DNA of 64,000 nt from an uncultured Candidatus Saccharibacteria bacterium. Lineage in GTDB: Bacteria; Patescibacteriota; Minisyncoccia; Phycocordibacterales; UBA9973. The notes under the pieces are model-generated. The model saw only the letters and a list, made by a program, of their open reading frames with translations, ran no database searches and was not told the DNA's origin. Numbering within the stretch: the stretch's first letter is position 1; every line of letters starts with the position of its first letter. The DNA lies in contig CAYYSI010000002.1 in NCBI GenBank assembly GCA_964474435.1, positions 92,260 through 156,259 on the forward strand, written 5' to 3'. Position numbers and translations under genes: made by a program. Below, piece by piece: positions 2,437 to 60,043 of this stretch.

Positions 2437-2452
2437 GAGTGAAAAGTATACC

Positions 2453-14530: not shown

Positions 14531-14550
14531 GAGAGTATTGTACTACAATA

Positions 14551-16269: not shown

Positions 16270-16270
16270 A

Positions 16271-17218: not shown

Positions 17219-17260
17219 GCATCTAGTATATCATCGAGTACCGTATCCGAATATGTATCG

Positions 17261-19069: not shown

Positions 19070-19089
19070 TACTCCTCAAGTATACAATA

Positions 19090-19725: not shown

Positions 19726-19727
19726 AG

Positions 19728-20135: not shown

Positions 20136-20169
20136 AGCTCTATTGTACCCTACTTCGCTTTATTTCTGA

Positions 20170-24187: not shown

Positions 24188-24217
24188 GCATATAGTGTAT
24201 CACGCAGAGCGATGTTT

Positions 24218-25162
24218 CTACCACAAATTGAGTCGAAGTGAGCGTTCAAGTGTACGCAATCCGATCGCAGTATTGTTTGGAGTGAGGAAGCTACCACTTG
24301 CATTTGGTCCATCGATACCAATGAAGCCATCATACGGGTTGCCGCCACCGATCGCGGCACAGACTGGGTTGAGGTAGCTACACGCACCGTTGTTTGCGAC
24401 GACTCCCCCGATAAATCCTTGAGCATCTTGGGCAAGGACGTGCCAAAACGGTGTTGGGACGCGAAGTTTGTATTGAGAGTTGGCTGGGATCTGAGCAGTG
24501 CGAGCAACACATCGGTTATACAGACCCGTAATAGTGTCTACTTTTGCCTTGAAGTTGTCGTGGTTGCCTGTTTCTGTGGCAACATCGGCATCAGTGCGGA
24601 GTGTCTGGGATAGTGCATAAAATCTATTTTGGAGTGCTTGGAGCTGAATAAGCTGCTCTGGTGTGAATTCGATATTGAGATCTGCACTGCTGCACTCGGG
24701 CCCTGCGACTGTAGGAGGTACTGATGCGGGGGTTTGGGTTGTAGGGTCAACGGTCGTTGTGGATCCTGGCGCCGTTGTCTCTCCTGGGACACCAGATCCA
24801 GGTGTGCTTCCTGATGATGAGCCATTGGTTCCCGTACCAGAAGTTCCTGTGCCAGAACCTGTGGATGTCGTTGGGGTATAGGCACCACTGCTAAACTGCG
24901 CAACTTGGGTGCCGATTGTTGGGGTGACACTCGTGCCCGGTGTTGCAGAGCTGAGATTGTCATCCACAAAGACTGATGAGAGGCTGCCATCGTTTGGGGT
25001 GAGTCCGGTGCCAGTGTTTGTGTCTCCGCTCAAAAACTGTCTGAATGTTGGTTTTGCAGTACCATTTTTCTCTGCGGTGCGGCGTGAAAAGAGCCATGCT
25101 CCCCCGAGAATGATCGCGAGCACGATGAGAATGATGACAAGGATAGTGATGAATCGTTTCAT
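24218..25162 (-). CDS. N-terminally membrane-anchored protein with S/T/G-rich linker and globular C-terminal domain (VirB8-like candidate)
   Basis: TM anchor ILVIILIVLAIILGG, then a TGTGS-rich linker, then a roughly 170-aa domain. Confidence 0.4.
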   Translation of the reverse strand: MKRFITILVIILIVLAIILGGAWLFSRRTAEKNGTAKPTFRQFLSGDTNTGTGLTPNDGSLSSVFVDDNLSSATPGTSVTPTIGTQVAQFSSGAYTPTTSTGSGTGTSGTGTNGSSSGSTPGSGVPGETTAPGSTTTVDPTTQTPASVPPTVAGPECSSADLNIEFTPEQLIQLQALQNRFYALSQTLRTDADVATETGNHDNFKAKVDTITGLYNRCVARTAQIPANSQYKLRVPTPFWHVLAQDAQGFIGGVVANNGACSYLNPVCAAIGGGNPYDGFIGIDGPNASGSFLTPNNTAIGLRTLERSLRLNLW

Positions 25163-25170
25163 AATGAGTA

Positions 25171-27483: not shown

Positions 27484-27492
27484 GGTTGATGG

Positions 27493-28389
27493 CTATAGTA
27501 TACCGTATGTTGCCAAATAATTGTTCATGTTTACAAGCGACGTGTTGAGTTTGAGGCTATATTTCTTGTATACCGCAACTCCGACGAGGGCTGCAATACT
27601 GTTGTCATTGATTTCAGTCATATAGGTGAGCGATGTTGCGATCCCAGAGAAGCTGTTGACGATGCCAAGGTGGTCTTGGGCAAGTCCGACCGGGACTTTG
27701 ACTCTTGCGAGCTCTTTGGCAAGCTTTTGGTATGTGGTTGCGCTTGCTTTGAGTTGTGGCAGTCCGGTTTGGTCTTCGTTTTGGAGCGCGGTTGCGAGCA
27801 CTTCGATATCGGGGGTGTTTGCATCGTATTTACCAATAATATTGCGCATCGATGTGCGATAGCTGGTGAGGGTGGGGATACTGGTTTGCACGGTCTGGAT
27901 ATCTTTTAGAGTATACGTATTGCTGACCTGTTTGATATCGACTGATGCGGCAAGTTTTGCAGAGATGGCCTGGAGTGTCTGGTCGTCGACTTCGTCAGAT
28001 TGGCCAAGGGCCGCCGTGAGTGTAAAGAGCTCCCGTGCGAGACGGTCGGTGTCGTCTGTTGGTTCAGTGCTCATGCTGTCAGTGATGCCGAGCGCTTTCT
28101 TTTTTGCAGCTATGATTTCTGCATTTGAGGTGCCGTTAGTATAGAGCACAGTCGGATCCAGTCCCCAGAGCTTTTCTTCCCAGTCAGGAATCTTGTTGCC
28201 ATTAGAGTCTTTGCCCACAATGTCCCCCACTGTTTCAGACACAACGACTGCAGACTTTTCTCGTTTAAAGACAAGTCGCTGAAACCATGCCGTTTGTACG
28301 ATGAGCACAACTGCAACAATGCCGATCGCGATTGCGCCACGCTTGATGAACTGCTTACTGGGACGGGAAGATTGTTGTGATAGCTCCAT
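27493..28389 (-). CDS. membrane-anchored hypothetical protein
   Basis: Single N-terminal TM (AIAIGIVAVVLIVQTAWF); 298 aa. Confidence 0.45.
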   Translation of the reverse strand: MELSQQSSRPSKQFIKRGAIAIGIVAVVLIVQTAWFQRLVFKREKSAVVVSETVGDIVGKDSNGNKIPDWEEKLWGLDPTVLYTNGTSNAEIIAAKKKALGITDSMSTEPTDDTDRLARELFTLTAALGQSDEVDDQTLQAISAKLAASVDIKQVSNTYTLKDIQTVQTSIPTLTSYRTSMRNIIGKYDANTPDIEVLATALQNEDQTGLPQLKASATTYQKLAKELARVKVPVGLAQDHLGIVNSFSGIATSLTYMTEINDNSIAALVGVAVYKKYSLKLNTSLVNMNNYLATYGIL

Positions 28390-34106: not shown

Positions 34107-34140
34107 TAAAAAAATCCTGCAACGAGCAGGATTTTTTTTA
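34107..34140. terminator. bidirectional rho-independent terminator
   Basis: aaaaaaa-ATCCTGC-aacga-GCAGGAT-ttttttt. Confidence 0.7.
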
Positions 34141-35643
34141 TTCAAACTTCGGCCTGTACTGCAATGCTTCCAATATGTGTGGGATCTCGATTGTCTCACT
34201 CTTTTCCAGATCAGCAATTGTGCGGGCGACTTTGATAGTGCGCATATAGACGCGGGGTGAGAGTTTGAGTTTCTCGGCATAGACTTGGAGCTGTTTACGG
34301 GCGTCATCCGAGAGTCTGCTTTCGCGTTGGACTTCGGTTGATGACAGATCGCTGTTGAGTTTCCCAAATCTTTTTTCTTGGGTTGTGCGCACTGACTCTA
34401 TTTTTTCTCGGACACTCCTACTTTCTTTTTCAGTTGCGTCATCATGGAGTGTTGCATATTCGACATGCTGGACTGGTACCCACAGATCGATACGATCAAT
34501 GATCGGACCGGAGAGTTTTTTGTTGTAGCGTGCAATTTCTGCACCACTACAACTACAGTGTTTGATGCCGCTGCCTCGATAGCCGCACGGACATGGATTC
34601 ATTGCGGCAAGGAGTATGAAACGCGCAGGATATCTGACACTTCCCTTTGCGCGTGCAACTGTGATCGCACCGTCCTCGATGGGTTCGCGCAGTGCTTCGA
34701 TCACACGCCGATCAAACTCCGGGAATTCATCCAGATACAATATCCCGCGATGTGCGAGTGTGATGTCGCCTGGACGTAATTGTTGTCCGCCACCAATGAT
34801 CGCAACATGTGATGCAGAATGATGTGGAGAGCGCAGCGGTACCTTGCCGTGTAACGCATCATTGATCAGTCCGATCGATGAGTAGATCGTTGCGACTTCG
34901 AGGAAGTGGCTACTTGTGAGCGCTGGCATGATGCCATGAAATGCCTTTGCGAGCATTGTCTTGCCAGTGCCCGGTGGTCCATAGAGGACGATGTTATGTC
35001 CACCAGCTGCAGCGATCGTGAGCGCGCGTTTGGCCTGTAGTTGTCCACGCACGTCTCCAAAATCAATCCCGCTTGAGGTTTCGATAATTGCTGGTGGTTG
35101 ATAGGTCGTCGTTTGCAACTGTTCTCCGTCATTGAGGTGTGCAACCAGTGCCTCAAGTGTGGGCACGAGATAAAATGTCACACCATCGACGAGGCACGCT
35201 TCGATGGCATTGCCTTCGGGTACAAATACTTCACTCATACCGTTGTCTCGTGCCCATTGCGCAATCGAGAGCAGTCCTCTCACTGGGCGCACGTCACCAT
35301 TGAGTGCGAGCTCTCCCACAAAGAGTTTGTTGCTCGTATCAAATACAAGCTCACCTGTTGCGGTCAGATACCCAAGTGCGATAGCAATATCAAAATACGC
35401 CCCCTCTTTGCGGAGCTCTGCGGGCGAGAGGCTGACGATGACTTTGTGGTTTTCTGCCTTTGGATTTTTATCAATGCTGTTGCGCAGTGCCGAGATCACA
35501 CGCTCACGAGACTCTTCGACTGACTTGTCCGGCAGTCCCACAATCTGGAACATATAGAGCCCTCGATTGATATCGGTCTCGACGACGACTCCTACTGCTC
35601 CCAGTCCTGACAACTGCGCACTCTGAATGCGAGAAAATGACAT
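34138..35643 (-). CDS. comM: Mg-chelatase-like AAA+ protein YifB/ComM
   Basis: Lon-like N-terminal domain and an AAA+ Walker A GPPGTGKT; ATG at 35643 chosen. Confidence 0.85.
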   Translation of the reverse strand: MSFSRIQSAQLSGLGAVGVVVETDINRGLYMFQIVGLPDKSVEESRERVISALRNSIDKNPKAENHKVIVSLSPAELRKEGAYFDIAIALGYLTATGELVFDTSNKLFVGELALNGDVRPVRGLLSIAQWARDNGMSEVFVPEGNAIEACLVDGVTFYLVPTLEALVAHLNDGEQLQTTTYQPPAIIETSSGIDFGDVRGQLQAKRALTIAAAGGHNIVLYGPPGTGKTMLAKAFHGIMPALTSSHFLEVATIYSSIGLINDALHGKVPLRSPHHSASHVAIIGGGQQLRPGDITLAHRGILYLDEFPEFDRRVIEALREPIEDGAITVARAKGSVRYPARFILLAAMNPCPCGYRGSGIKHCSCSGAEIARYNKKLSGPIIDRIDLWVPVQHVEYATLHDDATEKESRSVREKIESVRTTQEKRFGKLNSDLSSTEVQRESRLSDDARKQLQVYAEKLKLSPRVYMRTIKVARTIADLEKSETIEIPHILEALQYRPKFE

Positions 35644-35774
35644 CACGTACGAAACAGAATACTCTGTTGTATGGTATGGAAATAAGATCGACCTGTTTTG
35701 TACGTGAACATGAAACAAGTATAGTAATTCGTTCTAAACTATTTCTAAACTGTGTGAAACGAGATATGCACTAG

Positions 35775-38277: not shown

Positions 38278-38453
38278 AGTAGAGACATCATAACACACCC
38301 ACTCAAAAAAAGCAAGTGGGGCCTGCGAGGTGAGGAAGAGATGTATTTTTGGAGCACTGTTGAGGCCAGAGGCCGAGTTTGCGGAAAAAATATGTCTCTT
38401 TCGACCCGAAGCAGCATCTATGTCGCACAATATTTTGTTATACTTCTCTGTAT

Positions 38454-39359
38454 ATGGACTTCCCTACTGCAAAACGACAATTCCTCGAGTATATCGAGAT
38501 CGAAAAGGGCCGCTCGCTCAAAACTGTCGAAAATTACGATCACTACCTCTCTCGCTTTGCCACTGACATGAAGGTATCCAAGGTGAAGGATATCACCGAA
38601 GACACACTTCGCGAGTTTCGCCTGCGCCTCAACCGTGCTCCAGGCGTCAAAGTCCGTGGGCAATCTGCTGCAACGATGAAGAAAAACACGCAGAACTACT
38701 ATATGATCGCGCTACGCTCATTCCTCAAATACTGCCGCAAGCGAAACATCGATGCTGTGACGCCGGATGCCATCGAGCTTGCAAAGGTCGGCGCTCGCCA
38801 CCTCGACCTTATATCAACTGACGAACTCAATCGTCTCTTGAAATCCCCTGACACAACGACGCTCAAAGGTTTGCGGGACAAAGCACTTCTTGAGCTCTTT
38901 TTCTCGACAGGCCTTCGTCTTGCCGAGCTTTGCTCGCTCAACAACGACCTCGACCTCTCTCGTGATGAGTTTTCTATACGCGGAAAAGGTGAAAAGGTCC
39001 GTGTGGTGTTCATCTCAGACGATGCACGAGCTGCAATCAAGGCATATCTCAAGGCTCGCAAGGACATGGACGACGCAATGTTCGTCAATATTGCCAAAAA
39101 CAAGATATCTGGCCGCCTCACCCCCCGTTCGATCGAGCGCATCGTGCGTGAATACTCTATAAAGGCTGGAATCTCCAAGAAAGTCACGCCCCACGTCCTT
39201 CGTCACTCGTTTGCGACCAATCTCCTCTCCAATGGCGCCGATATTCGCAGTGTCCAAATGATGCTCGGCCATGCCAACATCGCTACAACCCAGGTCTATA
39301 CACACATTACCGACAAACAACTTCGTGAGGTGCACAAGAAGTTTCATTCGAAAAAGTAA
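38454..39359 (+). CDS. xerD: tyrosine recombinase XerC/XerD family
   Basis: C-terminal catalytic motif HVLRHSFAT...LGHANIATTQVYTH with the catalytic Tyr. Confidence 0.8.
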   Translation: MDFPTAKRQFLEYIEIEKGRSLKTVENYDHYLSRFATDMKVSKVKDITEDTLREFRLRLNRAPGVKVRGQSAATMKKNTQNYYMIALRSFLKYCRKRNIDAVTPDAIELAKVGARHLDLISTDELNRLLKSPDTTTLKGLRDKALLELFFSTGLRLAELCSLNNDLDLSRDEFSIRGKGEKVRVVFISDDARAAIKAYLKARKDMDDAMFVNIAKNKISGRLTPRSIERIVREYSIKAGISKKVTPHVLRHSFATNLLSNGADIRSVQMMLGHANIATTQVYTHITDKQLREVHKKFHSKK

Positions 39360-46785: not shown

Positions 46786-46802
46786 AGGGATATTCTATAT
46801 AG

Positions 46803-46874
46803 TGCACCCATCAGGACTCGAACCTGAAACGACGCTTCCGAAGAGCGCTGTGATATCCATTTCACCATGGGTGC
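46803..46874 (-). tRNA. tRNA-Arg (anticodon TCG)
   Basis: Manual fold: acceptor GCACCCA/TGGGTGC, anticodon stem GCGCT/AGCGT with loop CTTCGGA, T-arm CAGG-TTCGAGT-CCTG. Confidence 0.7.
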
Positions 46875-46940
46875 GTATTGCAACTATAGCATTATTAAGG
46901 TTTTTTGCAATTGTAAACCAATGTAGTAGTATATAATACG

Positions 46941-47591
46941 ATGAGAAAGGACAAAGATTTTATATTCACATTGCGCAAAGGAGGGGACTCATATAGGCAA
47001 ATCCAGGCAAAAACAGGGGTTTCACGTGCAACACTTACTAAGTGGTTTGGCAATACTGAGTGGTCAAAGGAGCTAAAAGTGGTCCATACTGACATTGAAA
47101 CCAGAAGCTCAAAGGAGCGAATGATCCGCCTCAATATGGTACGAAAGTTAAAGCTACAGTATGCATACGCACTTATTGAGTCTGAAGCTGTAAAGGAATA
47201 CGAGCTTTACAAGAAAGAACCGCTTTTTTGGGCAGGACTTATGCTCTATGCAGGCGAAGGGGAGAAGACCTCAAAAGGCTTGATTCGTATAAGCAGCAGT
47301 GAGACCTATATCCATAGGATCTTTGGGGATTTTGCCCAAAAGTACCTAGCAGTAGGGGAGAAATCATTGAAATATGGTCTCTTGGTGCACGAAGGGCAGG
47401 ATGAAGGTGTCTGTAAGAGTAAATGGGCACAAGAGCTCTCTCTAGATGATGGTGACTTCTATAAAACCCAGACCCTAAGGGGGCGAGAAACCAGATTGCA
47501 ATATGGTGTCTGTATGAGTATAATCTCGAATACTGGTCTGAAGAGAAAGGTACTAAAGTGGCTTTCTTTGGCACAGAATGAGAAATTTTGA
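46941..47591 (+). CDS. hypothetical protein with N-terminal HTH
   Basis: N-terminal resolvase-type HTH (DSYRQIQAKTGVSRATLTKW) and a weak LAGLIDADG-like segment (WAGLMLYAGEGEK); lies between two tRNA genes. Confidence 0.4.
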   Translation: MRKDKDFIFTLRKGGDSYRQIQAKTGVSRATLTKWFGNTEWSKELKVVHTDIETRSSKERMIRLNMVRKLKLQYAYALIESEAVKEYELYKKEPLFWAGLMLYAGEGEKTSKGLIRISSSETYIHRIFGDFAQKYLAVGEKSLKYGLLVHEGQDEGVCKSKWAQELSLDDGDFYKTQTLRGRETRLQYGVCMSIISNTGLKRKVLKWLSLAQNEKF

Positions 47592-47594
47592 TAT

Positions 47595-47665
47595 GCGGTC
47601 ATAGTTTAGTGGTAGAACGACTCGTTGCCAACGAGTAGGTTGGGTTTCGATTACCCATGATCGCA
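47595..47665 (+). tRNA. tRNA-Gly (anticodon GCC)
   Basis: Manual fold: acceptor GCGGTCA/TGATCGC, D-arm AGTTTAGTGGTAGAACG, anticodon loop TTGCCAA, T-arm GGTTTCGATTACC. Confidence 0.75.
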
Positions 47666-47840
47666 CAGAGTATATAAAGAACAAAAAGACCTTATTATGT
47701 AGGGTCTTTTTGTTTGTGTTGATATGTCTCATAGACAAAACCTGTCGAATATGGGGACAAAACCTTTAATAATCAACGAAACTGTGGATAACTAGGTGTA
47801 TATGTGGGATAACGGACGACTTTTACGCTACACTGTCCCT

Positions 47841-48203
47841 ATGATTCGTGTCTTTACGTCCAAAACCCAGGAATTGGGAGAAAAAGGGGAGCATGAGGCG
47901 GTCGTATACCTAGAAAATGACGGATTTACAGTTATTGAGCGAAATGCGAACGGCAAATACGGCGAAATCGATATTGTGGCCAAAAAGCAGGGGATTGTGC
48001 ACTTCTTTGAGGTAAAGGCAGGGTATGCAGGAGGGTGGATCAATCCGGCAGAAAACCTCACTCAGGCAAAACTTCGGAAATTCCTCATTTCTGCAGAACA
48101 CTATGCGCTGACCCATGGGATCAAAGACTATCGAGTCGAGGGGATCGTCGTGCTCTTTGACCGAAATGGGGGAGTAGGGGTCGAAAGGATAGGACTTTTT
48201 TAA
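47841..48203 (+). CDS. yraN: YraN/UPF0102-family endonuclease
   Basis: Conserved GEIDIVA...FFEVK motif; ATG at 47841 chosen (the track start is GTG at 47796). Confidence 0.65.
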   Translation: MIRVFTSKTQELGEKGEHEAVVYLENDGFTVIERNANGKYGEIDIVAKKQGIVHFFEVKAGYAGGWINPAENLTQAKLRKFLISAEHYALTHGIKDYRVEGIVVLFDRNGGVGVERIGLF

Positions 48204-48221
48204 GGTCTTTTTTGTGCGGGA

Positions 48222-48292
48222 TAGGGGAATCGGACTCCTGCTCTCAGTTTGGAAAACTGATGTTCTACCATTAAACTAATCCCGCAATATTT
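48222..48292 (-). tRNA. tRNA-Gly (anticodon TCC)
   Basis: Manual fold: acceptor GCGGGAT/ATCCCGC, anticodon stem TCAGT/ACTGA with loop TTTCCAA. Confidence 0.7.
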
Positions 48293-48340
48293 CTATTTTA
48301 TATTCTTTGGTCTCCTTCGCCAAGGCTTCGGCGACCGTTG

Positions 48341-48411
48341 TCGGGGTGCAGGGAATCGAACCCTGCCCTCTTGTTCCCAAAACAAGTATACTACCGATAT
48401 ACTACACCCCG
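48341..48411 (-). tRNA. tRNA-Pro (anticodon TGG)
   Basis: Manual fold: acceptor CGGGGTG/CACCCCG, anticodon stem CTTGT/ACAAG with loop TTTGGGA, T-arm CAGGG-TTCGATT-CCCTG. Confidence 0.65.
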
Positions 48412-48535: not shown

Positions 48536-50809
48536 ATGACGCACTCACGCGGTCACCTTTTTAGTACTCATAGACGCACACTCGCTGCGCTCTTGTTCGG
48601 CCTCTCGTTTTCGATCATTGTTGCGTACGCAACACCGCCGGGTAGTGCATATACGCCAGGTGAGACGCTTGACCCAACATGTGCACCAGGAGATACATTT
48701 TGTACCGTTGCGATTGCGGGAGGGTTAACATTTTCTACTGGACTTACCAATACGGCAAATACGATTACGAACAATCTCTCGACTGGTGTATCTGGGGGGC
48801 AGAGTGTCGTGGGCGGTACGGCCGCATCAAACAACCTCACGCTTTCATCAACGACTAATGCAACCAAAGGGAAAATTATTTTTGGGACAAGTGTGTATGA
48901 TGAGGCAAACAATAGGCTTGGTATAGGGACAACATCACCCGATCAGCGATTTGTTGTGCAAGGACAGACAGTGGGAGGAACACCAACATATCTCAGATTT
49001 GATTCAGGTATTCTTTCATTGGAAGGAGATTTGTCGGCACAAAATGGGGTACCACTGATCGATTTCAAAGATACTGCAACCAATCAAGTCTTTTCACGTG
49101 TGGGATATATTCTCAATACTGGTATTTCGATTAGTAACTCATGGATTGGTTTAAATAAATCAGCGGTCTTTATTGAACATACCGCTGATGAAAATTCATT
49201 TGTGATTTCCAGAGGGACGGCGGCATATGGAGTACCAACCCGTATTGGTATCGGTACGGCCACACCCTCAAGTAGGTTTGATGTGACAACGGATGCTTTG
49301 AGTGAAACACAAACTGCAGTCTCCGGTATTGCACTCGTAAACCACTCTCCGGCAGTAAATGGAGTACAACAGATTTCGCCCGCAATCCGATGGTCAGGTC
49401 ATGGATGGAAAACAGCTAGTACTGCGGCAAGTCAGGCCGTTGATTTCAGAGCGTATGTTACTCCTGTGCAAGGAACGACAAATCCTACGGGGTATCTCGG
49501 GTTTGGATCATCGATCAACGGGGGAGCGTACACCGATAATCAGCTTGTATTAACGAGTCAGGGATACGTAGGAATTGGGACGACGACACCGTCTAATGTG
49601 CTCGAAGTAACCGGAGGAGCGAGTATATTTAATGGAGACATCCGTATACGATCAGGTAATACCTTTGTTGTATTAAATGCAGATAATTCTCTCAATGGTT
49701 CGATGTCGCTCATACATGAACCAAATAATCCTGCTATATCTATAGTCGCATCGCAGTATAATGGCAGTACTATACAGGGATATAACGGAGAAGGTTCATA
49801 CTATTATGCGACTGTTTCGGGCAATCGTATTGTTTCCATAGATAGGAATGTACTGTCGGGCGGAACGACGGGTGGAAACGGATTTACTATCGGGGACTAT
49901 GCTGAGTATGCACCAACGACAGGGACCAATACGTACAACACAATAAACCTCAATCCTATTATTAACGCTACAGGTGGCACGAACACTGTTCGGGGGATCT
50001 ACTATAATCCAAATCTTACAGCAGTGGTCGGCACAACCAATATTGCCTTTGAAAATACAACAGGAAACGTGCTGTTGGGTACGACGAGTGGGCGAGTGGG
50101 TATCGCAAATACGAATCCGGGATATTTGCTCCATGTTGGTTCGTCCGCGGTCACGACCGGTACAACAGTTGCACGTTTTGAAAATCAGGGCGGTACGTGT
50201 GATGTTGTTCCGTCAACTATCGGAGGTATAACCTGTACATCCGATGAGCGGCTCAAGAAAAATATCACGACACTTGATGATTCTATATTGGACAAAATAC
50301 TTTCGCTTCGATTGGTAACATACAACCTGAGAGCCGAAGAAAATACTGATCCTTTGCATACAGGTGTCATTGCGCAAGAACTCGTGAACGTGTTTCCTGA
50401 GCTTGTTGCCACTGATAGCTCCGGCTGGGAGTCAGTCTCGTATACTGGACTGATCCCGTACACGATCAAGGCAATTCAAGAAATGAATCTGCGTGTTACC
50501 GAGCTCAATGACATGCAAAAAGCAAATCCACTCCGCGACAACCTCACTGCATGGTTTGCAAATGCTGCAAACCATATCACGCGCATCTTTACGGGTGAAA
50601 TCTGCCTTACGGATACTGACGGCACATCGGAATGTCTAAACAAAGCAGAGCTCGGACAATTGAAACAACTCCTCAATACACAGACACGCACACCTGATCC
50701 TGTTGTACCATCAACCCCTGATCCACTACCATCGCAAGATCCGAGTATTCCTGAATTAGTGCCAGAGAGTACACCCGCTGAGATTCCCACAGATACGTCA
50801 CAATCATAA
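48536..50809 (+). CDS. secreted tail-fibre-like protein with C-terminal Peptidase_S74 intramolecular chaperone (autoproteolytic) domain
   Basis: Signal peptide/TM LAALLFGLSFSIIVAYA. The C-terminus CTSDERLKKNITTLDD...GVIAQEL...P matches the S74 IMC consensus S-D-x-R-x-K-x-N-I, followed by a coiled-coil tail. The central region is Gly/Thr/Asn-rich and beta-helix-like. Confidence 0.65.
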   Translation: MTHSRGHLFSTHRRTLAALLFGLSFSIIVAYATPPGSAYTPGETLDPTCAPGDTFCTVAIAGGLTFSTGLTNTANTITNNLSTGVSGGQSVVGGTAASNNLTLSSTTNATKGKIIFGTSVYDEANNRLGIGTTSPDQRFVVQGQTVGGTPTYLRFDSGILSLEGDLSAQNGVPLIDFKDTATNQVFSRVGYILNTGISISNSWIGLNKSAVFIEHTADENSFVISRGTAAYGVPTRIGIGTATPSSRFDVTTDALSETQTAVSGIALVNHSPAVNGVQQISPAIRWSGHGWKTASTAASQAVDFRAYVTPVQGTTNPTGYLGFGSSINGGAYTDNQLVLTSQGYVGIGTTTPSNVLEVTGGASIFNGDIRIRSGNTFVVLNADNSLNGSMSLIHEPNNPAISIVASQYNGSTIQGYNGEGSYYYATVSGNRIVSIDRNVLSGGTTGGNGFTIGDYAEYAPTTGTNTYNTINLNPIINATGGTNTVRGIYYNPNLTAVVGTTNIAFENTTGNVLLGTTSGRVGIANTNPGYLLHVGSSAVTTGTTVARFENQGGTCDVVPSTIGGITCTSDERLKKNITTLDDSILDKILSLRLVTYNLRAEENTDPLHTGVIAQELVNVFPELVATDSSGWESVSYTGLIPYTIKAIQEMNLRVTELNDMQKANPLRDNLTAWFANAANHITRIFTGEICLTDTDGTSECLNKAELGQLKQLLNTQTRTPDPVVPSTPDPLPSQDPSIPELVPESTPAEIPTDTSQS

Positions 50810-50833
50810 TTTCTTGCTATACTTACTACTGTA

Positions 50834-52474
50834 ATGACGCATTCACGCGCTCAACTTTTCAGTACTCATAGACGCACACTTGCTGCACTCATGTTTGGGC
50901 TCGCATTTTCTGCGGTTGTTGCGTACGCGACACCACCAGGGAGTGCATATACGCCCGCCGAAACACTCGATCCCATCTGTGTCCCAGGAAGTGCATTTTG
51001 TACAGTAGATATTAGTGCGGGGTCTCTCATTGGTTCAACATCTACTAATGGTACAGAGACGTGGCTTGGGACGAGTGTGGCTGGGCTTGGGGCGGCATCA
51101 ACTGATCACACTGTTTTTATTGGGATTGATGCAGGGATAAGTGCAAATGATAGTGAGTATTCTAATTTCATGGGATATCAGGCAGGCGCAGGGTCGACAA
51201 CGACACACTCGTCCACATTTATTGGTACAAATGCTGGATACCAAGTGAGTAATGCTTCAAATGCGGTATTTATCGGTTCCGAAAGTGGATCAACGGTGAC
51301 AAATGCAGGGGGTTCAAACTTCATCGGCTATCAGGCGGGCCTCAATGCAATAAATGCTACCACATCCAACCTCATCGGCTATCAGGCAGGACTGAATAGT
51401 TTTTCAGTGGCTGTTGCCAACGTCATCGGTAATGGTGCGGGGTCTGGTGCTACTGCTGCACCCTTCGTTAATTTCATTGGAAACAATGCAGGGTTTAATT
51501 CGTCGGATACGAGTAGTTCAACCTTTATAGGGTATAACACAGGTGGAAACGCAACCCATGCACAGCACTCAGTCTTTATTGGAACACAGACAGGAGCTAA
51601 TTCTACAGGAGCAACGAATGGAATATTTCTAGGAAGAGAGGCTGGCCTAAATGATACCGTTGATAATACTACCGACCAAGATGACTACTCAATACTTATT
51701 GGTCTTCGTGCAGGAACAGGAGGATTTGAAAACAGTATTGCAATCGGCGCATACGCAACAAACACTGCGCTAAACCAATTTATGATTGGTTCTGCAACGC
51801 GTCCGATAAATGAAATGGTCATCACCGGAACTGGGGGGCAGTCATGTACGATTCGCCCGGATACTGCAGGTATCAACTGTTCATCTGATCAAACACTCAA
51901 AACAAATATTACTGATTTAGAAAATGTACTCGACACACTCAGTGATGTGCGCACGGTCATGTACAATTGGAAAAATACTCCAAACACCAATGCGCAAATC
52001 GGATTTCTTGCACAAGATCTCAAGGAGTATTTCCCAACACTTGTGTCTCGTGCATCAAATGGGTATCTCCAGGTCAACTATGCAGGCATGACACCGATCC
52101 TCACAAAGGCGATCCAAGAACTCAATCTAAAAGTAGAAGGTGCGTTTGATATTCAGAAAAACAATACCTTTGCCGGAAATATGCGTGCATGGTTTGCAAA
52201 CACTTCAAATGGCATCGCAAAGATGTTTGCGGGTGAAGTAGAGACAAAGAACTTGTGTGTCTCTGACGATACAGGCGAGCGAACATGTATTACGAAGTCA
52301 GACCTCGACGCACTTCTTGAAAATGCACACCTCACTCCATCGTCTCCAGAACCAGTACCGACACCTGAAATACCTGTAGTCCAAGATGAGCCGGTTGACC
52401 CAGTACCAACTGAGGATGCGACTGAACCTATGGTTGATAGTACAATTGATACACCACCAACACACAATGAATAA
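50834..52474 (+). CDS. secreted tail-fibre-like paralogue with Hep_Hag-like FIGYQAG repeats and C-terminal Peptidase_S74 IMC domain
   Basis: The first ~60 aa and the 5' region are near-identical to the upstream paralogue. There are about 10 degenerate 14-16-aa repeats (NFIGYQAGLN...). The C-terminus reads CSSDQTLKTNITDLEN...GFLAQDL. Confidence 0.65.
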   Translation: MTHSRAQLFSTHRRTLAALMFGLAFSAVVAYATPPGSAYTPAETLDPICVPGSAFCTVDISAGSLIGSTSTNGTETWLGTSVAGLGAASTDHTVFIGIDAGISANDSEYSNFMGYQAGAGSTTTHSSTFIGTNAGYQVSNASNAVFIGSESGSTVTNAGGSNFIGYQAGLNAINATTSNLIGYQAGLNSFSVAVANVIGNGAGSGATAAPFVNFIGNNAGFNSSDTSSSTFIGYNTGGNATHAQHSVFIGTQTGANSTGATNGIFLGREAGLNDTVDNTTDQDDYSILIGLRAGTGGFENSIAIGAYATNTALNQFMIGSATRPINEMVITGTGGQSCTIRPDTAGINCSSDQTLKTNITDLENVLDTLSDVRTVMYNWKNTPNTNAQIGFLAQDLKEYFPTLVSRASNGYLQVNYAGMTPILTKAIQELNLKVEGAFDIQKNNTFAGNMRAWFANTSNGIAKMFAGEVETKNLCVSDDTGERTCITKSDLDALLENAHLTPSSPEPVPTPEIPVVQDEPVDPVPTEDATEPMVDSTIDTPPTHNE

Positions 52475-54608
52475 ACTATTTAGAAACATACTAGTACTCG
52501 CACTGTGCACGATAGGATTCGTGAGTGTTGCACACGCGGCAATGGGGACGATCGACCCAGGCAATGATGGCTCATACAAGGCGCTTATACAAAATACTGA
52601 CCTGGGGGCCGCAACCGCAATTAACTTTGGGAAGTTCACGACACAGTCTGCAAAAAATATCACCGTCTCTGACACAGAGCTGCGTGGGTTTGCTTGGGGC
52701 GAAGGGGTAGGGTGGATCGTCACCAACTGTGCTGATACGACGAGTGGCTGCAGTGTCACCAACAGCAATTTCAAAATCGCCAATGATGGCAGTGGCAACC
52801 TCTCGGGCTACGCCTGGGGTGAAAACACGGGCTGGATCAATTTTGGGCCATTTACCAACCCTCTGATTTCAACAGTCAAAATTTCTGGAGGACAATTTGG
52901 AGGTACTCTTGGAAGCGCGGGCTACGCATGGTCACAAAACTTTGGCTTCATCAAGTTTGATTGCAGTAGTCCTACAAGCTGTGTAAAAACTGACTGGGCA
53001 CCAGGTGGAGCATTTCAGTGTAACGATACAGTAGATAATGATGGAGATGGATTGATCGACTATCCTGCTGATCCTGGATGTAGTAATGCGACAGATAATG
53101 ATGAATCAAATGGTGGAACAACTGGGGGACCGGGAACTCCCGCATGTCGGGACGGGCGTGATAACGACGGCGACAACCTTGTCGACTATCCATCTGACCC
53201 AGGCTGCGATAACGCAGACGATACAAATGAATTTAATGCGCCGATAGATTTCTGTACCGCAAATCCATCTGATCCGTCGTGTTCATTTTGTGCATTGAAC
53301 CCAACCAACCCAGCTTGTCAGCAACCACCATTCTGTACGACGAACCCGGGTGATCCATCATGTTCATTCTGTAATCAAAATCCAGGAGATCCGTCATGTC
53401 AGATACCATTCTGTACAACCAATCCAACAGCGCCAATATGTCAGCAGCCATTCTGCACTCTGTATCCGAATGATCCATCATGCCAAGCACAACCATTTTG
53501 TACAACAAACCCAAATGATCCTTCGTGTGCATTTTGTGTTCTGAATCCTACTGATCCATCCTGCAAGACAACACCATCATATTGTCAGGTACACCCCGAA
53601 GAATGTTACCCTCCAAAAATACCAACAAAAATCGAAGGTGCAACCAAATCTTTTGTTACTGGCACAATCGGCAAAATACTCAAACTCACAGGGCTTGTTG
53701 CAGTCGGCGTTGGTGCACTCGCACTTTCATTCGTCGGAACACAGTTCTCACTCTACAGCCTTCTCCTTCTCTTGATGCGACTCTGGTCACTCTTGCTCAT
53801 CGCCCTCGGTATCAAGAAAAAGAGTAATCCATGGGGGACTGTGTATGACTCTGTCACCAAACAGCCAATCGATCCGGCGTACGTCGTGCTCATGGATATG
53901 CAGGGCAATGAAGTTGCAACCTCGATCACTGACATCGAAGGACGATACGGATTTGCAGTACCTCCTGGCACCTATACGATCATAGCGAACAAGACTAACT
54001 ACGAATTCCCATCCAAGAAACTTGCAGGCAAGACATCTGATGAACTCTACGATGACCTCTACTTTGGTGGACCAATCGTGATCACAGAACAAGATGGTCT
54101 GATCACAAAAAATATCCCACTCGATCAGCAGAACTTTGACTGGAACGAATATGCAAAAAATGAACAGCATCGACTCCGTCACTACAAGCGTCAAGATCTC
54201 TTTATTGCACGCCTTTCAAATATATTCTTCATTCTCGGCTTCATCGTCACCGCGATCTCGGTCCTCGTCGTTGCGTCCCTCTTTAATATCGTGCTCATGG
54301 GACTCTATATTGTCACTGCACTTGGGCGACTCTTTAAGGTTCGCATTCAACCAAAGGGAAGTGTCGCAGACACTGCAACTGATATGCCATTGCCGTTTAG
54401 TGTGGTGCGCGTGGTCTCGACTGCAACTAACAAAGAGATCATGCACAAGGTCGCAGGACCCACCGGCAAGTACTACGCGCTCGTAGCAAATGGTGACTAT
54501 CGCGTCGTCGTCGATCGCAAGAACGCCGATCAAAGCTATACGCCGGTCTCTATCCCAGATCCTGTCGCAGTGAAAAAAGGTTATATGAAAAAAGACTTCA
54601 AAGTATAA
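52467..54608 (+). CDS. multi-pass membrane protein with thrombospondin-type-3-like Ca-binding repeats, about ten CxxNPxDPSC cysteine repeats and CarboxypepD_reg-like domains
   Basis: ATG at 52467 overlaps the upstream stop (ATGAATAA). Signal peptide; DNDGDGLIDYPADPGC repeated twice; the repeat array FCTTNPGDPSCSFC...; a TM bundle; the motif GTVYDSVTKQPIDPAYVVLMD...GRYGF..PPGTYTI. Confidence 0.55.
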   Translation: MNKLFRNILVLALCTIGFVSVAHAAMGTIDPGNDGSYKALIQNTDLGAATAINFGKFTTQSAKNITVSDTELRGFAWGEGVGWIVTNCADTTSGCSVTNSNFKIANDGSGNLSGYAWGENTGWINFGPFTNPLISTVKISGGQFGGTLGSAGYAWSQNFGFIKFDCSSPTSCVKTDWAPGGAFQCNDTVDNDGDGLIDYPADPGCSNATDNDESNGGTTGGPGTPACRDGRDNDGDNLVDYPSDPGCDNADDTNEFNAPIDFCTANPSDPSCSFCALNPTNPACQQPPFCTTNPGDPSCSFCNQNPGDPSCQIPFCTTNPTAPICQQPFCTLYPNDPSCQAQPFCTTNPNDPSCAFCVLNPTDPSCKTTPSYCQVHPEECYPPKIPTKIEGATKSFVTGTIGKILKLTGLVAVGVGALALSFVGTQFSLYSLLLLLMRLWSLLLIALGIKKKSNPWGTVYDSVTKQPIDPAYVVLMDMQGNEVATSITDIEGRYGFAVPPGTYTIIANKTNYEFPSKKLAGKTSDELYDDLYFGGPIVITEQDGLITKNIPLDQQNFDWNEYAKNEQHRLRHYKRQDLFIARLSNIFFILGFIVTAISVLVVASLFNIVLMGLYIVTALGRLFKVRIQPKGSVADTATDMPLPFSVVRVVSTATNKEIMHKVAGPTGKYYALVANGDYRVVVDRKNADQSYTPVSIPDPVAVKKGYMKKDFKV
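53230..53580 (+). repeat. in-frame tandem coding repeats (~33-36 nt units) encoding the CxxNPxDPSC array
   Basis: Repeated ...tgtac(a/g)acaaacccaaatgatcc(a/t)tc(a/g)tg... units visible at the nucleotide level. Confidence 0.6.
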
Positions 54609-56261: not shown

Positions 56262-56290
56262 ACGACAAAATCCCCGCGAGGGGATTTTGG
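56262..56290 (-). terminator. rho-independent terminator
   Basis: aaaATCCCC-gcga-GGGGATttt hairpin downstream of the 56301 gene. Confidence 0.55.
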
Positions 56291-56300
56291 GAGGGGAGAT

Positions 56301-57224
56301 TTATTTAGCTTTTACAAAATCAGTATAGTTTGCAGTGGTACTTTCCGCTTTCTTCTTTTTTACCAAGAATCCATATTCAGAATATTTTATACCTGTTTTA
56401 AGGATCGCATCTTTTTCATAGCGGTTTATTTGTCCTGATGGATTTACTGTCGCAAAGTTTTCGAGGCCACCCGCACTAACCTTGTCGTTAACGTTGTTAT
56501 CCATTGTGTCATCAGATTCAGAATGAGTTGTATCAATAACCATACCGTATCCAATTTTATTAATAAGCTCCTGACCATTTTTAGCAACCGCTGTACGCAA
56601 ATCTTGAGTATTCGCAAGTTCAAACCCGAGTTCTTTTGCTGCCTTCTTTACATGTTCAATTTTTTCAGCATCGTTGTGACTATCATCTCCATCAAATCCA
56701 ACAAAAGCATATTCATAATTTGCGTCATTCATGGGAACATTCAACGACCCTTTGAATGTGATACCTGCTACTTCTTGGTTCGCTTCAGTGAAAACAATTT
56801 TTTCTTGGCCAATAGATTGAGTTTTTTCTTGAGTAGTATCACTCGGAAGTTTTTTAAGGTCCTCTGCGTTTGCGGCTGTAACGGCCGTAACCCCAAAACC
56901 AAGCAGTGTAAGGAATTTTCTAAAACCACCAACTTTTGATGTTTGTGGTATGTAATTTTTTGATGATGTCCAAGGCTCTGCTGGCGCATTTCCGCGCTGG
57001 TATGCAATAGAGCCCACCTTGTCTTTCATAGGGGTTTCCTTCGGTGTTTTGTAGGCATTATCAAGATCTCCCATGGTCTCTGCAACTTGTGCTTCGCGAT
57101 CTTCAGAGCTTTCCATTTCAACAATGACTCGCTCGCCAGGTCGTGCATGGATTACCACATCTTCTTTATTGATATTTTCTGCAACGTTTTCGTTTACTTC
57201 AAGATTTTCTTTTGATGATTCCAT
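56301..57224 (-). CDS. hypothetical protein with acidic N-terminus and one TM segment
   Basis: ATG at 57224 (MESSKENLEV); TM FRKFLTLLGFGVTAVTAANA. Confidence 0.4.
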   Translation of the reverse strand: MESSKENLEVNENVAENINKEDVVIHARPGERVIVEMESSEDREAQVAETMGDLDNAYKTPKETPMKDKVGSIAYQRGNAPAEPWTSSKNYIPQTSKVGGFRKFLTLLGFGVTAVTAANAEDLKKLPSDTTQEKTQSIGQEKIVFTEANQEVAGITFKGSLNVPMNDANYEYAFVGFDGDDSHNDAEKIEHVKKAAKELGFELANTQDLRTAVAKNGQELINKIGYGMVIDTTHSESDDTMDNNVNDKVSAGGLENFATVNPSGQINRYEKDAILKTGIKYSEYGFLVKKKKAESTTANYTDFVKAK

Positions 57225-57243
57225 GCCATCACTATACCACACG

Positions 57244-59949
57244 CTACTGATACCTCGCCATGATTTCAGCTTCCACTTCCTCTCTCGGGCGGCCGTATTT
57301 GAGGTAGGAGAGCTCCTTGAGTTTCTCGGCAACAACAGGGTTACCCTTGGGTGGGAATGGGGTCTTGGAGTTAAATGGCTTGGCAGGGACGCCGTTTACG
57401 AGCATTTTGATATAGCAGTTGAGGTTTTCTTGTTTGATGATGTCGGCCGGAGTGAATGTTGGGGCAAGTTGTTGTTCAAAGATATTGGCATTTTCAGGAG
57501 AGACACGGTGGACGACCATGGTACCGACGTTTCCAAATATCGCATTCTTGATGCCTTCCTCAAGCTGCTCGATGTACTGGTGCGCAACCGTAAGCGAGAG
57601 GCGATATTTGCGGGCCTCGGAAAGGATCGTCGAGATCGAGTCAGTCGTGACGTTTTGGAACTCGTCGATGTAGAGATAGAAGTCGTTCACTGGACCCTTG
57701 CCGATGATGTCGACACGAGAGAGTGCTGCCATGGTGATCTTGCCGACCAAAAGGAGACCGATGAGGTTGGAGTTGATGTCACCGAGACGGCCTTTGGAAA
57801 GGTTCACAAGCAAGATCTTTTTGTTATCCATGATGTCGCGGAAGTTGAGCACGGATTCTTGTTGAGCGACGACGGGGCGCATGATGTCGTTAGAAATAAA
57901 CACGTCAAATTTGTTGGTGATATAGGGGACGAAGTTCGCAAGTGCACTCTCACCAGTTGTCTTTTCAGCATTTTGCCAAAAGGCTTTGATGATCGGATTT
58001 TTGCAGCGGGCGAGTTTCATGTCGCGGAACGTCTTGTCGGTGAGGACACGACCGATTTCGAGAAGTGTAGAACCAGATGCTGGGTCCTCCATCACAAGGC
58101 CTGCAGAGTTGCGGAAGTATTGTTCAAACATTGGGCCACCCGCAGTCTTCATATCAAAGAGTTTGTTGAAAATAGAGAGGAGCTCGTTGATGACAAATAT
58201 TTTTTGTTCAGGGAAGTTTGCATCGTACTCAAGCATGTTGAGACCCATCGGACGCGCCGTGTGAGCCGGATCAAAATAGATGACGTCGTCGATGCGCTCT
58301 GGGGGGATGTTGGCAAGGATGTCCTCGATGTCGTTGCCGTGCGGATCGATGAAGCACACTCCGTCGCCGTTTTTGATATCCTGAATGATCATGTTTTTCA
58401 AAAACACGGTTTTACCAGTACCAGTCTGTCCGATCACATAGCAGTGGCGCACGCGATCTTCTTTTGCAAAATGAATCTCAGTCGTCTGTCCGCGATACGT
58501 GTTGGTACCGATCGTGATGCCGTTCGTGTTTGGCATTGTCGGTGCAGGCGCAGATGCAGCACTACTTTCCTTGAGCTCGGGCGCAGCCGTAAATCCAACA
58601 GGGAAGTGAAAGAGTGTTGCGAGCTCGTCGATGTTGAGCGGTATTTGTTCGCTCTGATTGCGTGTACGGAATGTAAAGTCGTGCACAAATGCAGGGATTG
58701 CAGATGCACGCGTGTCATACCAAATGAGTGAGTTTGAGTTGGGCAATGTGAACTGCGCAAACGATGCTTTGATCGTATTGAGAATACTTGTTGCGCGTTC
58801 GACCGTGGTACCTGTTGCGATAATGCGAATACCTGCAGTCATGGTCTGACTTTTTGCCTTTGCGGTTGCAAACTCGATGCCGCGCGTGTCGACTGGTTTT
58901 GGTTTGTCGTCCTCTGGTTTGTCTTTTTCAAAAAAGGCCATGAGTCCTTTGCCGAGCTCGCGACCGATAGAGGCCGTTGCATCTTTGTACAAGTCTTTGA
59001 CCGTTGTGCCACCCTTTTGTGCAGAGTCGATGATCGATGTGTAGAGCGTGTTGGTGTTCGTCGTGTCATTTGAAATGATGAGCTGGATTGCAGCGCCTTC
59101 ACCATTTGCTTCAAGTTGTGAGAGTGACCCGATCAAAGCTGAGAGAGGATCGTGCTCAAATGCGCTGTCAGTGTTCAATGGAAAAATTGCAGGCTCTTTG
59201 AGCGATGCAACACTTGCGGCAATACCAGAGCCTTGAGCCGTGAATATGTTGTAGTCATCGACGACTTCATCAATGATGGCGGTGGGGTAGTATGCGTGCA
59301 CGAGCTTTTCAAATGTAGATTCGTTGACACTTGGGATCGATGCATAGAGTCCAATGTCGCGACCGTTGTTTTGCACGGCGAGTTCGAGGACATAATAGTC
59401 GACACCGTTGCTGATGGTTGACCACATGCCCATGTAGAACTGCTTCATCGCCTGAATGAAATTTTTGAAATCACTGCCTTCAGTATTTGCAGCTGCAGGA
59501 AGGGTCACCGCAAAGAGGGTGTGGCGAAGTTCTTGTTGGAGGGCACTTCGTTCTTTGAGTCCCGGGATTGCGCCGATCGTATGGAGGTACTGCACGAGGA
59601 ATCGGTGGAAGTCGTCCTCGAGGTGTGCGTCGTGCATGCCCGCAACGATGTCGAGCGCATTTTTGATACCCTTGGAGAGCATGATCGCAAAGAGCTCCTC
59701 TATCTTTTGGTCATGGGTTTCAGGTTTGAGACGCAGCACGATACGTTCTGTTTCGTGTGTCGGCAGCATGCTTGATTCATGAAGGAACTCTTGAGCTTCA
59801 GTTTGCGCATACTGCTCGATCGTGTGCTTTGCGGCAGCTTCGAGATTTGCATGTGGCTTACTCTGCAGCAGATATTCTTTTTGCGCTTCAGTACCAAGCC
59901 ATGCGATTTCTTGGGCAGGTGTTGTCAGCGTTTCTTTGGGAGCGAACAT
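57244..59949 (-). CDS. VirD4/TraG-family type IV coupling-protein-like ATPase with ~480-aa N-terminal extension and no TM anchor
   Basis: Walker A VIGQTGTGKTVFL, a D-rich Walker B region YLYIDEFQN, and a TraG-D_C-like signature KYRLSLTVAHQYIEQL. Confidence 0.55.
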   Translation of the reverse strand: MFAPKETLTTPAQEIAWLGTEAQKEYLLQSKPHANLEAAAKHTIEQYAQTEAQEFLHESSMLPTHETERIVLRLKPETHDQKIEELFAIMLSKGIKNALDIVAGMHDAHLEDDFHRFLVQYLHTIGAIPGLKERSALQQELRHTLFAVTLPAAANTEGSDFKNFIQAMKQFYMGMWSTISNGVDYYVLELAVQNNGRDIGLYASIPSVNESTFEKLVHAYYPTAIIDEVVDDYNIFTAQGSGIAASVASLKEPAIFPLNTDSAFEHDPLSALIGSLSQLEANGEGAAIQLIISNDTTNTNTLYTSIIDSAQKGGTTVKDLYKDATASIGRELGKGLMAFFEKDKPEDDKPKPVDTRGIEFATAKAKSQTMTAGIRIIATGTTVERATSILNTIKASFAQFTLPNSNSLIWYDTRASAIPAFVHDFTFRTRNQSEQIPLNIDELATLFHFPVGFTAAPELKESSAASAPAPTMPNTNGITIGTNTYRGQTTEIHFAKEDRVRHCYVIGQTGTGKTVFLKNMIIQDIKNGDGVCFIDPHGNDIEDILANIPPERIDDVIYFDPAHTARPMGLNMLEYDANFPEQKIFVINELLSIFNKLFDMKTAGGPMFEQYFRNSAGLVMEDPASGSTLLEIGRVLTDKTFRDMKLARCKNPIIKAFWQNAEKTTGESALANFVPYITNKFDVFISNDIMRPVVAQQESVLNFRDIMDNKKILLVNLSKGRLGDINSNLIGLLLVGKITMAALSRVDIIGKGPVNDFYLYIDEFQNVTTDSISTILSEARKYRLSLTVAHQYIEQLEEGIKNAIFGNVGTMVVHRVSPENANIFEQQLAPTFTPADIIKQENLNCYIKMLVNGVPAKPFNSKTPFPPKGNPVVAEKLKELSYLKYGRPREEVEAEIMARYQ

Positions 59950-60043
59950 GACAGTAGTATACCTTGTTGCACAGTGTATTTCTATATAAAAACAAAAATA
60001 CCCCGAGTTAATCGGAGTATGTTTGCAAGTGGGAAGAGTGAAT

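Follow-up and report, generated by a model that had tools for sequence, protein, structure and literature searches.

Which machine, if any, does a coupling-protein-like ATPase serve when its gene lies tens of kilobases from the nearest secretion genes and no relaxase is detected around it? This question is raised by a gene on the minus strand at positions 57244-59949 of a 64,000-nucleotide stretch of DNA (hereafter the window) from an assembly labelled as an uncultured Candidatus Saccharibacteria bacterium (GCA_964474435.1, contig CAYYSI010000002.1, positions 92,260 to 156,259 of the forward strand). The window covers the region surrounding the replication origin of a Paceibacteria-type chromosome. 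The gene is a complete open reading frame (ORF) with an ATG start, and its product of 901 amino acids (aa) is well supported, in both assignment and anatomy, as a divergent type IV coupling protein of the DUF8128 type, within the FtsK/HerA superfamily of P-loop ATPases, here in a long, soluble form. On balance, we lean towards the reading that it is a domesticated coupling ATPase, which probably still serves the PrgI/VirB4 machine encoded beside dnaA as its coupling or loading ATPase.

The catalytic signatures lie in the C-terminal half, on the minus strand like all features of the gene: a Walker A motif GQTGTGKT (aa 507-514; 58408-58431), a Walker B motif YLYIDE (aa 758-763; 57661-57678) and, within the TraG-D_C match, the signature KYRLSLTVAHQYIEQL (aa 781-796; 57562-57609). 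In an alignment of 111 sequences, whose members are 46-88% identical to the query, G506, Q507, T508, G509, G511 and K512 of the Walker A region are invariant, with T510 and T513 conserved in at least 90%. Likewise invariant are D761 and E762 of Walker B as well as A788, H789 and Q790, which form an AHQ motif within the third signature. The retention of all three motifs indicates, at the level of the alignment, that they are under purifying selection. The gene is clearly real: hundreds of full-length homologues share 60-88% identity with its product, and an identical protein (P0001) is present in public assemblies.

Three Pfam families of coupling proteins match the protein above their cut-offs, each over part of its length: T4SS-DNA_transf (26.9 bits, cut-off 20.1), TrwB_AAD_bind (26.2 bits, cut-off 20.5) and TraG-D_C (25.3 bits, cut-off 22). 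DUF87 (22.5 versus 23.2) and FtsK_SpoIIIE (17.4 versus 24) remain below theirs. Among NCBIfam models, TraD, the VirD4-like CD1115 and TrbC rank first, all far under their equivalog cut-offs, which marks the protein as a divergent member of the coupling proteins. Across 26 diverse family members, TrwB_AAD_bind, TraG-D_C and DUF87 are each matched in 21 and T4SS-DNA_transf in 10, and a family profile searched against PDB sequences finds TrwB (7.7e-5) and DotL (2.9e-4) as its best matches. Hence, the VirD4/TraG-like C-terminal half, the Walker A motif and the accompanying signature that a preliminary description of this DNA had noted are borne out; FtsK or HerA, named there as the best matches that would speak against this assignment, are outscored by the coupling-protein families. 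The proposed absence of an N-terminal transmembrane anchor holds as well: no 19-residue Kyte-Doolittle window reaches 1.6, the usual transmembrane threshold, and the maximum of 1.53 lies inside the ATPase core.

In the structure models, aa 476-901 (57247-58524) fold into a nucleotide-binding domain resembling that of TrwB and VirB4, into which an all-alpha domain (~aa 581-708) is inserted, and a helical tail follows at the C-terminus; the combination of nucleotide-binding and all-alpha domain that characterizes the TrwB-like fold is thus present. A first model, built from 42 close homologues, rendered the ATPase domain poorly (predicted local distance difference test, pLDDT, ~50-60), while a second one from the 111 more diverse sequences reached a pLDDT of 81. 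Structural comparison of the ATPase domain gave the highest figures for the C-terminal domains of VirB4 (4AG5; 28.5) and DptH (27.0), followed by TrwB (25.6), HerA (24.7), DotL (23.0), Cag-beta (20.5) and FtsK (17.3), and the Foldseek superposition on TrwB has a TM-score of 0.65 normalised to TrwB. The domain therefore belongs to the VirB4/VirD4/HerA branch. Its sequence groups it with the coupling proteins; as modelled, its structure alone cannot tell it from VirB4.

A stretch of ~475 aa precedes the ATPase fold. The preliminary description had spoken of a soluble N-terminal region of roughly 480 aa; its length and solubility agree, but the region is not unexplained, since it consists of DUF8128 and a fused helical partner. 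The DUF8128 (PF26449) core at aa 131-450 (58600-59559) is an alpha/beta domain with ferredoxin-like beta-alpha-beta units, which are confidently modelled as repeats with a pLDDT of mostly 75-95. PF26449 is recorded as a precomputed match on the identical protein P0001 ('weak') and on most homologues; in a local Pfam copy that may not hold this model, it was not matched on the protein at E values up to 1. A literature search for 'DUF8128' returned no paper. In front of the core lies an N-terminal module (aa 1-130; 59560-59949) that is all-helical in the model and carries the conserved motif PExHD...HLxDDFHRFLVQY.

The origin of this module is suggested by an exhaustive HMMER search with aa 1-467, which yielded 749 clusters of two builds. 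Long forms of ~900-930 aa are devoid of a membrane helix, while in short forms of ~800-860 aa a membrane helix stands at the N-terminus and the equivalent of aa 1-130 is absent. A short-form profile retrieved 80 metagenome loci (L088-L167), four of which turned out to encode long forms, and 67 of the 74 full-length short-form proteins from these loci possess the N-terminal membrane helix. In 35 of the loci from this search, a same-strand gene for a protein of ~138 aa (range ~115-175 aa) was found, which lies directly upstream of the ATPase gene in 32 cases. The two genes are mostly separated by -4 to +36 bp, often with a 4-bp overlap (e.g. L116:247-642 and L116:639-3031). An hhalign comparison identifies the small protein as a homologue of aa 4-119 in the long form (probability 95.5%, E 1.5e-8). 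Furthermore, a hidden Markov model (HMM) of the 35 small proteins recognises 111/111 long forms within their first 150 residues, the window protein being matched at aa 22-123 with E 1.2e-9. Because the N-terminus of the window protein is homologous to a separate small gene upstream of anchored short forms, the window protein is a fusion of the small helical partner to the DUF8128 ATPase, in which the partner occupies the position of the short-form membrane helix. A second type of upstream gene (~169 aa, cluster 5), apparently unrelated and unmatched by the HMM of the first type, occurs in 11 loci.

DUF8128, the mark of a subfamily of coupling proteins, is not confined to the window gene. When plasmids were searched with tBLASTn, the best relatives of the DUF8128 protein were found in Streptomyces and Embleya replicons, where they adjoin the best relatives of the VirB4 encoded in the window. 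On a plasmid of Embleya sp. NBC_00896, the gene order is a TrbL-like protein (753 aa), PrgI, an XF1762-family protein, VirB4 (643 aa), an 812-aa ATPase, a Replic_Relax relaxase and an NlpC/P60+SLT protein. The 812-aa protein (WP_331738717.1), whose gene overlaps the VirB4 stop codon, is labelled 'type IV secretory system conjugative DNA transfer family protein', and aligns with the family profile over 715 columns (query aa 131-892; hhalign probability 100%, E 1.8e-56), across both DUF8128 and the ATPase domain, which lends independent support to the DUF8128 assignment of the window protein. A Streptomyces chromosome (CP108206.1) displays the order T4SS_pilin, TrbL_3, PrgI, VirB4, a 796-aa ATPase with PF26449, Replic_Relax and a hydrolase. 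The order is the same on an Amycolatopsis contig, except that the protein in the ATPase position (847 aa, DUF87/TrwB_AAD_bind) has no recorded PF26449 match. The actinobacterial DUF8128 ATPases carry one N-terminal membrane helix, and no homologue of the helical module was found in the four actinobacterial loci. Owing to its position between VirB4 and a Replic_Relax relaxase, the DUF8128-plus-ATPase protein is the resident coupling-type ATPase of this monoderm secretion lineage.

Other parts of the same lineage, namely PrgI, VirB4 and a VirB6-like protein, are also encoded in the window. Here, a type IV secretion cluster occupies 13271-28389 on the minus strand beside dnaN, dnaA and yidC. It includes a VirB4-like ATPase (17261-19069, minus strand; P-loop_TraG 6.3e-25), which matches plasmid VirB4 genes of the CD1110 family by tBLASTn at 3e-101, and a VirB3-like PrgI (19728-20135, minus strand; 6.1e-10, above the cut-off), with a 211-aa ORF (19090-19725) between the two. 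Upstream of PrgI follow ORFs of 177 aa (20170-20703) and 1164 aa (20693-24187), the latter with nine segments that are hydrophobic by hydropathy. PrgI and VirB4 thus appear in the same order as in the actinobacterial clusters. Downstream of virB4, where the latter have the coupling protein, the relaxase and the NlpC/P60 hydrolase, the window cluster instead encodes an immunoglobulin-like protein and an L,D-transpeptidase (YkuD; 14551-16338). A 770-aa protein of the cluster proved unrelated. The wider origin region contains ruvB, ruvC, tyrS, a gene for a class A penicillin-binding protein, dnaN (9056-10147) and dnaA (10340-11683), followed by yidC; the minimum of the cumulative GC skew falls at ~6-14 kb of the window.

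The DUF8128 ATPase gene lies 38 kb from virB4 and ~29 kb from the nearest cluster edge (28389), in line with the distance of about 30 kb given in the preliminary description, which had also found no relaxase nearby. No relaxase family was matched in the window by a scan largely confined to ORFs of at least 150 aa. The label 'orphan', likewise used there, is appropriate insofar as the gene is unlinked to virB4 or a relaxase; the gene is, however, no stray or mobile copy. As its recurrent housekeeping synteny and its spread over species genomes demonstrate, it belongs to the core genome of Paceibacteria and is inherited vertically rather than being mobile-element cargo.

This conclusion rests on several surveys. 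All named homologues at 60-88% identity originate from assemblies of Paceibacterota, Nomurabacteria or Patescibacteria. When species-representative genomes were scanned, relatives turned up in at least 393 stretches, and the 80 loci that were kept all stem from Paceibacteria-type assemblies. In the clade of the window, the order is NusA-Ppa-Tig-ClpP-RNase Y-...-ATPase-HU-histidine kinase-response regulator. Since tBLASTn of the window proteins against 82 species loci recovered few shared neighbours, the synteny with RNase Y and HU is clade-specific. In more distant species, the ATPase gene terminates the spc ribosomal operon (L6-L18-S5-L15-SecY-Adk-Map-[ATPase]-Ndk). De novo neighbour clustering placed Map upstream on the same strand in 37/64 loci with enough flank and Ndk downstream on the same strand in 30/61. 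Map and the ATPase gene are separated by -4 to 288 bp (<50 bp in about a third of cases), and the distance from the ATPase gene to Ndk has a median of ~70 bp. The other contexts examined consist mostly of housekeeping genes. Many assemblies designated 'uncultured Candidatus Saccharibacteria bacterium' (MAG TPA_asm series; L004, L005, L021 and L023 among others) carry the Paceibacteria-type gene at up to 78% identity to the window protein; the organism labels of this series look unreliable.

These observations extend a picture that has in part been drawn before. Quinonero-Coronel et al. 2025 searched 3,035 Patescibacteria genomes and reported VirB4 in 2,417 of them, 5,713 VirD4-type coupling-protein homologues in 2,918, of which only 148 are near virB4, and relaxases in only 103 genomes (PMC12102498). 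The secretion cluster is often located near dnaA (PMC12102498), with which the placement of the window cluster agrees. Orphan coupling-protein homologues of Patescibacteria have therefore been in the literature since 2025, and the protein type is catalogued. Table S3 of the same study lists one recurrent high-coverage t4cp1 match far from virB4 in Nomurabacteria, including some VirB4-negative assemblies (PMC12102498); the DUF8128 family is likely among the published t4cp1 matches, the accessions of which could not be mapped. As hundreds of near-identical orthologues of the window protein are already catalogued, the finding is modest rather than surprising. For the fused, anchor-less form encoded in the core genome and for its small helical partner, in turn, no description was found. 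Functionally, epibiotic growth requires the type IV secretion genes in the one Patescibacteria organism that was tested genetically (PMC10633639, PMC12102498, PMC12857230). Wang et al. 2023, who found the Southlakia secretion system to be essential, recognised neither a coupling protein nor a relaxase in it. This raises the question of which cargo a cluster of this kind transports and how that cargo is selected.

How might the DUF8128 ATPase fit into such a system? In Patescibacteria, its gene departed from the secretion cluster to become part of the core chromosome, and in the lineage of the window the small helical partner was joined to the N-terminus where the anchored relatives have their membrane helix. 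The C-terminal domain would assemble into a ring, bind and hydrolyse ATP, and hand or drive a substrate to a membrane translocon. Lacking an anchor of its own, the protein would have to be recruited through protein contacts, most plausibly via the helical module and DUF8128. Docking would most likely take place at the PrgI/VirB4/VirB6-like machine whose genes lie beside dnaA in the window. Given that no relaxase was detected in the window, classical relaxase-piloted conjugative DNA would probably not be the substrate; the undetected relaxase argues against this classical form of conjugation only. The suggestion in the preliminary description of a receptor that recognises protein instead of DNA is a conjecture. 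A role as coupling ATPase is favoured because the closest relatives outside the radiation hold exactly this position in their clusters, because the window cluster has no coupling protein of its own and because the catalytic motifs are invariant. That a membrane helix is missing is compatible with a coupling function in light of pIP501 TraJ, a coupling protein of a monoderm (MPF-FATA) system described as being anchored by TraI (PMC13037476).

Several observations weigh against a link to the secretion machine. A match to the window VirB4 was found in 0/82 long-form loci (±10 kb, tBLASTn, E<=1e-5) and in 0/80 mostly short-form loci (±8 kb, BLASTp versus called ORFs, E<=1e-3), both screens being single-sequence searches that could miss divergent VirB4s; PrgI was included in the latter screen only. 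Coupling-protein homologues are present in more Patescibacteria genomes (2,918) than VirB4 (2,417), and some VirB4-negative Paceibacteria assemblies still list coupling-protein matches. In Southlakia epibionticum, the homologue is located far from virB4 and is non-essential although the secretion-system genes are essential (PMC12102498); this organism belongs to a different class, and whether its homologue is of the DUF8128 type could not be established. The failure of Wang et al. 2023 to recognise a coupling protein in the S. epibionticum system points in the same direction. In addition, the housekeeping neighbours, i. e. SecY-Adk-Map upstream and Ndk downstream or, alternatively, RNase Y and HU, fit a general cellular role at least equally well.

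An alternative is an exapted motor, in which a descendant of a coupling protein now acts as an ATP-driven translocase or remodeller with a housekeeping function independent of secretion, for example, on DNA. We consider this explanation less probable but still a serious rival. It would explain why a core gene without a membrane anchor resides beside the spc ribosomal operon, and it draws on the recurrent Map/Ndk synteny, the conserved NusA-to-HU order in the clade of the window, the lack of virB4 linkage in the screened loci and the broader distribution of coupling-protein homologues relative to VirB4; exaptation, according to the authors of the genome survey, 'cannot be ruled out' (PMC12102498). 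The dispensability of the S. epibionticum homologue next to an essential secretion system likewise accords with it. On the other hand, gene neighbourhoods in such tiny genomes are mostly housekeeping anyway, and no positive evidence for another function or partner emerged, the small helical module being the sole conserved partner. Moreover, the closest relatives outside the radiation are all found within secretion clusters, and the window genome keeps a secretion cluster of the cognate type that has no coupling protein of its own.

A combined reading, which we hold only tentatively, joins a domesticated core motor of Paceibacteria with the idea that DUF8128 proteins are architectural intermediates between VirB4 and VirD4. 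Accordingly, a coupling ATPase would have been freed from virB4 and the relaxase, would have lost its helix and would have been fused to a dedicated helical adaptor. Often residing beside SecY-Adk-Map at the end of the spc operon, the motor may be co-transcribed with these genes in some genomes. It could then either drive a process independent of secretion or act as a regulated gate that loads non-conjugative cargo into the secretion system, which these epibionts depend on. The second part of this reading posits that DUF8128-type coupling proteins keep a VirB4-like N-terminal domain.

A further alternative is that the protein is not a coupling protein but a VirB4-type ATPase, i. e. a second ATPase for assembly or energisation, built of an N-terminal and a C-terminal domain. 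VirB4 is indeed laid out as a soluble N-terminal domain of 300-450 aa with an ATPase behind it, and the top PDB matches in Foldseek are full-length TrwK/VirB4 of R388 over ~880-900 columns (E 1.4e-9 with the first model and 6.3e-15 with the second). Even with the first model, in which the ATPase domain was poorly predicted, TrwK came out on top and TrwB was not among the matches listed, which points to a contribution of the N-terminal domain to the match. Foldseek also reports weak double-ferredoxin matches for the DUF8128 region. Sequence comparisons tell a different story. None of the 26 diverse members was matched by the VirB4 family models CagE_TrbE_VirB, AAA_10, P-loop_TraG, TraC_F_IV and TIGR00929 at E <=0.001, and the window protein itself scores 12.2 bits with AAA_10 and 19.6 bits with TIGR00929. 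An hhalign comparison with a 30-sequence VirB4 alignment gave a probability of 48% and covered the C-terminal domain only; the family profile aligned with the window VirB4 merely at the domain junction and Walker A (probability 31%), and it yielded no TrwK match among the PDB sequences. Since these three comparisons offer no support for the N-terminal part, the notion of a VirB4-like N-terminal domain derives solely from Foldseek. The actinobacterial orthologue, furthermore, directly follows a bona fide VirB4 and takes the coupling-protein slot beside the relaxase. A VirB4-type identity is hence improbable. Even less credible is a HerA-, FtsK- or DptH-like helicase or defence ATPase unrelated to secretion: such an assignment can invoke the DUF87 (HerA central domain) matches in 21/26 members and the name 'DNA helicase HerA-like ATPase' given to homologues by some sources, but the window protein is below the cut-offs for DUF87 and FtsK_SpoIIIE while passing those of three coupling-protein families, it has no HAS-barrel-like N-terminal domain, no NurA, Sir2 or Dnd partner was recognised in the neighbour clusters examined, all of them housekeeping or unassigned families, albeit by no search aimed at them, and its orthologue is part of secretion clusters.

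In the immediate surroundings of the DUF8128 ATPase gene, a 307-aa ORF (56301-57224, minus strand) starts 19 bp past its stop codon and encodes a protein that is acidic at the N-terminus and has a single segment of weak hydrophobicity. It was examined as a conserved partner and rejected: no Pfam family was assigned and tBLASTn produced a match in 1/82 loci, and the ORF is likely lineage-specific. A terminator-like hairpin (56266-56289) follows it. Just 5' of the ATPase start codon, there is a promoter-like site (59956-59984, minus strand), which is a consensus match only, the number of such sites not exceeding the expectation from shuffled sequence, and the terminator-like hairpin of hupB (59998-60020) is similarly a consensus-level hint only.

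Elsewhere in the window, an ORF with a SET domain (PF00856, E 1.9e-23; 2005-2715, minus strand), a protein lysine methyltransferase fold that is uncommon in bacteria, overlaps the end of an ORF for an S-adenosylmethionine-dependent methyltransferase (2453-3310). On the plus strand, 48536-54608 encodes three consecutive large proteins. Two of them (757 and 546 aa) contain Peptidase_S74, an intramolecular-chaperone domain known from phage tail spikes and fibres, and the third (740 aa) has CarboxypepD_reg repeats; they are possibly surface fibres or adhesins. A cluster of tRNA genes (Arg, Gly, Gly, Pro; 46802-48411) lies just upstream of the Peptidase_S74 genes. Two further genes are unlinked to the DUF8128 ATPase gene: one for a ComM-like ATPase of the Mg-chelatase family (34138-35718, minus strand), which is competence-associated in other bacteria, and one for a XerC/D-type tyrosine recombinase (38379-39359, plus strand).

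Taken together, the ATPase encoded between virB4 and the relaxase in actinobacterial clusters has its Paceibacteria orthologue in the widespread orphan coupling-protein homologue. The cargo question is thereby sharpened rather than answered, through the orthology, the conserved small helical partner and the core-gene status, while the fused build and the housekeeping location suggest repurposing. The helical module and DUF8128 provide concrete, testable candidates for the interface by which the protein may be recruited.

Compared with the classical coupling proteins TrwB (R388), VirD4, TraD, DotL and Cag-beta, with which it shares only ~17% sequence identity, the window protein differs in three respects. 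The former have an N-terminal transmembrane domain directly before the ATPase domain and no DUF8128 domain, and they are usually encoded together with a relaxase or secretion genes; the latter has no such membrane domain, contains DUF8128 and stands apart from both kinds of genes. The Cag-beta coupling protein has a small helical regulator, CagZ (PDB 8DOL). By analogy only, this pair resembles the DUF8128 family, in which a small all-helical protein is encoded upstream of the ATPase or fused to it. VirB4/TrwK differs from the window protein in that no family match exists at the sequence level, and a separate, genuine VirB4 is encoded in the same window, just as the actinobacterial VirB4 gene lies directly upstream of the orthologue. 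A precedent is pIP501 TraJ, a coupling protein that relies on another protein for its recruitment to the membrane. TraJ, however, is encoded on a plasmid in a tra operon with a relaxase, whereas the window protein is the product of a chromosomal core gene; a TraI-like anchor was not identified for it, and its fused partner is soluble and helical. The nearest relatives in build remain the actinobacterial coupling proteins. They share with the window protein the combination of DUF8128 and a TrwB-like ATPase as well as the automated labels of a conjugative DNA transfer family protein and a 'TraM recognition domain-containing protein'. Unlike the window protein, they possess one membrane helix and no 130-aa helical module, and their genes are situated between virB4 and Replic_Relax, whereas the window gene lies at a distance of 38 kb from virB4 in a stretch where no relaxase was detected.

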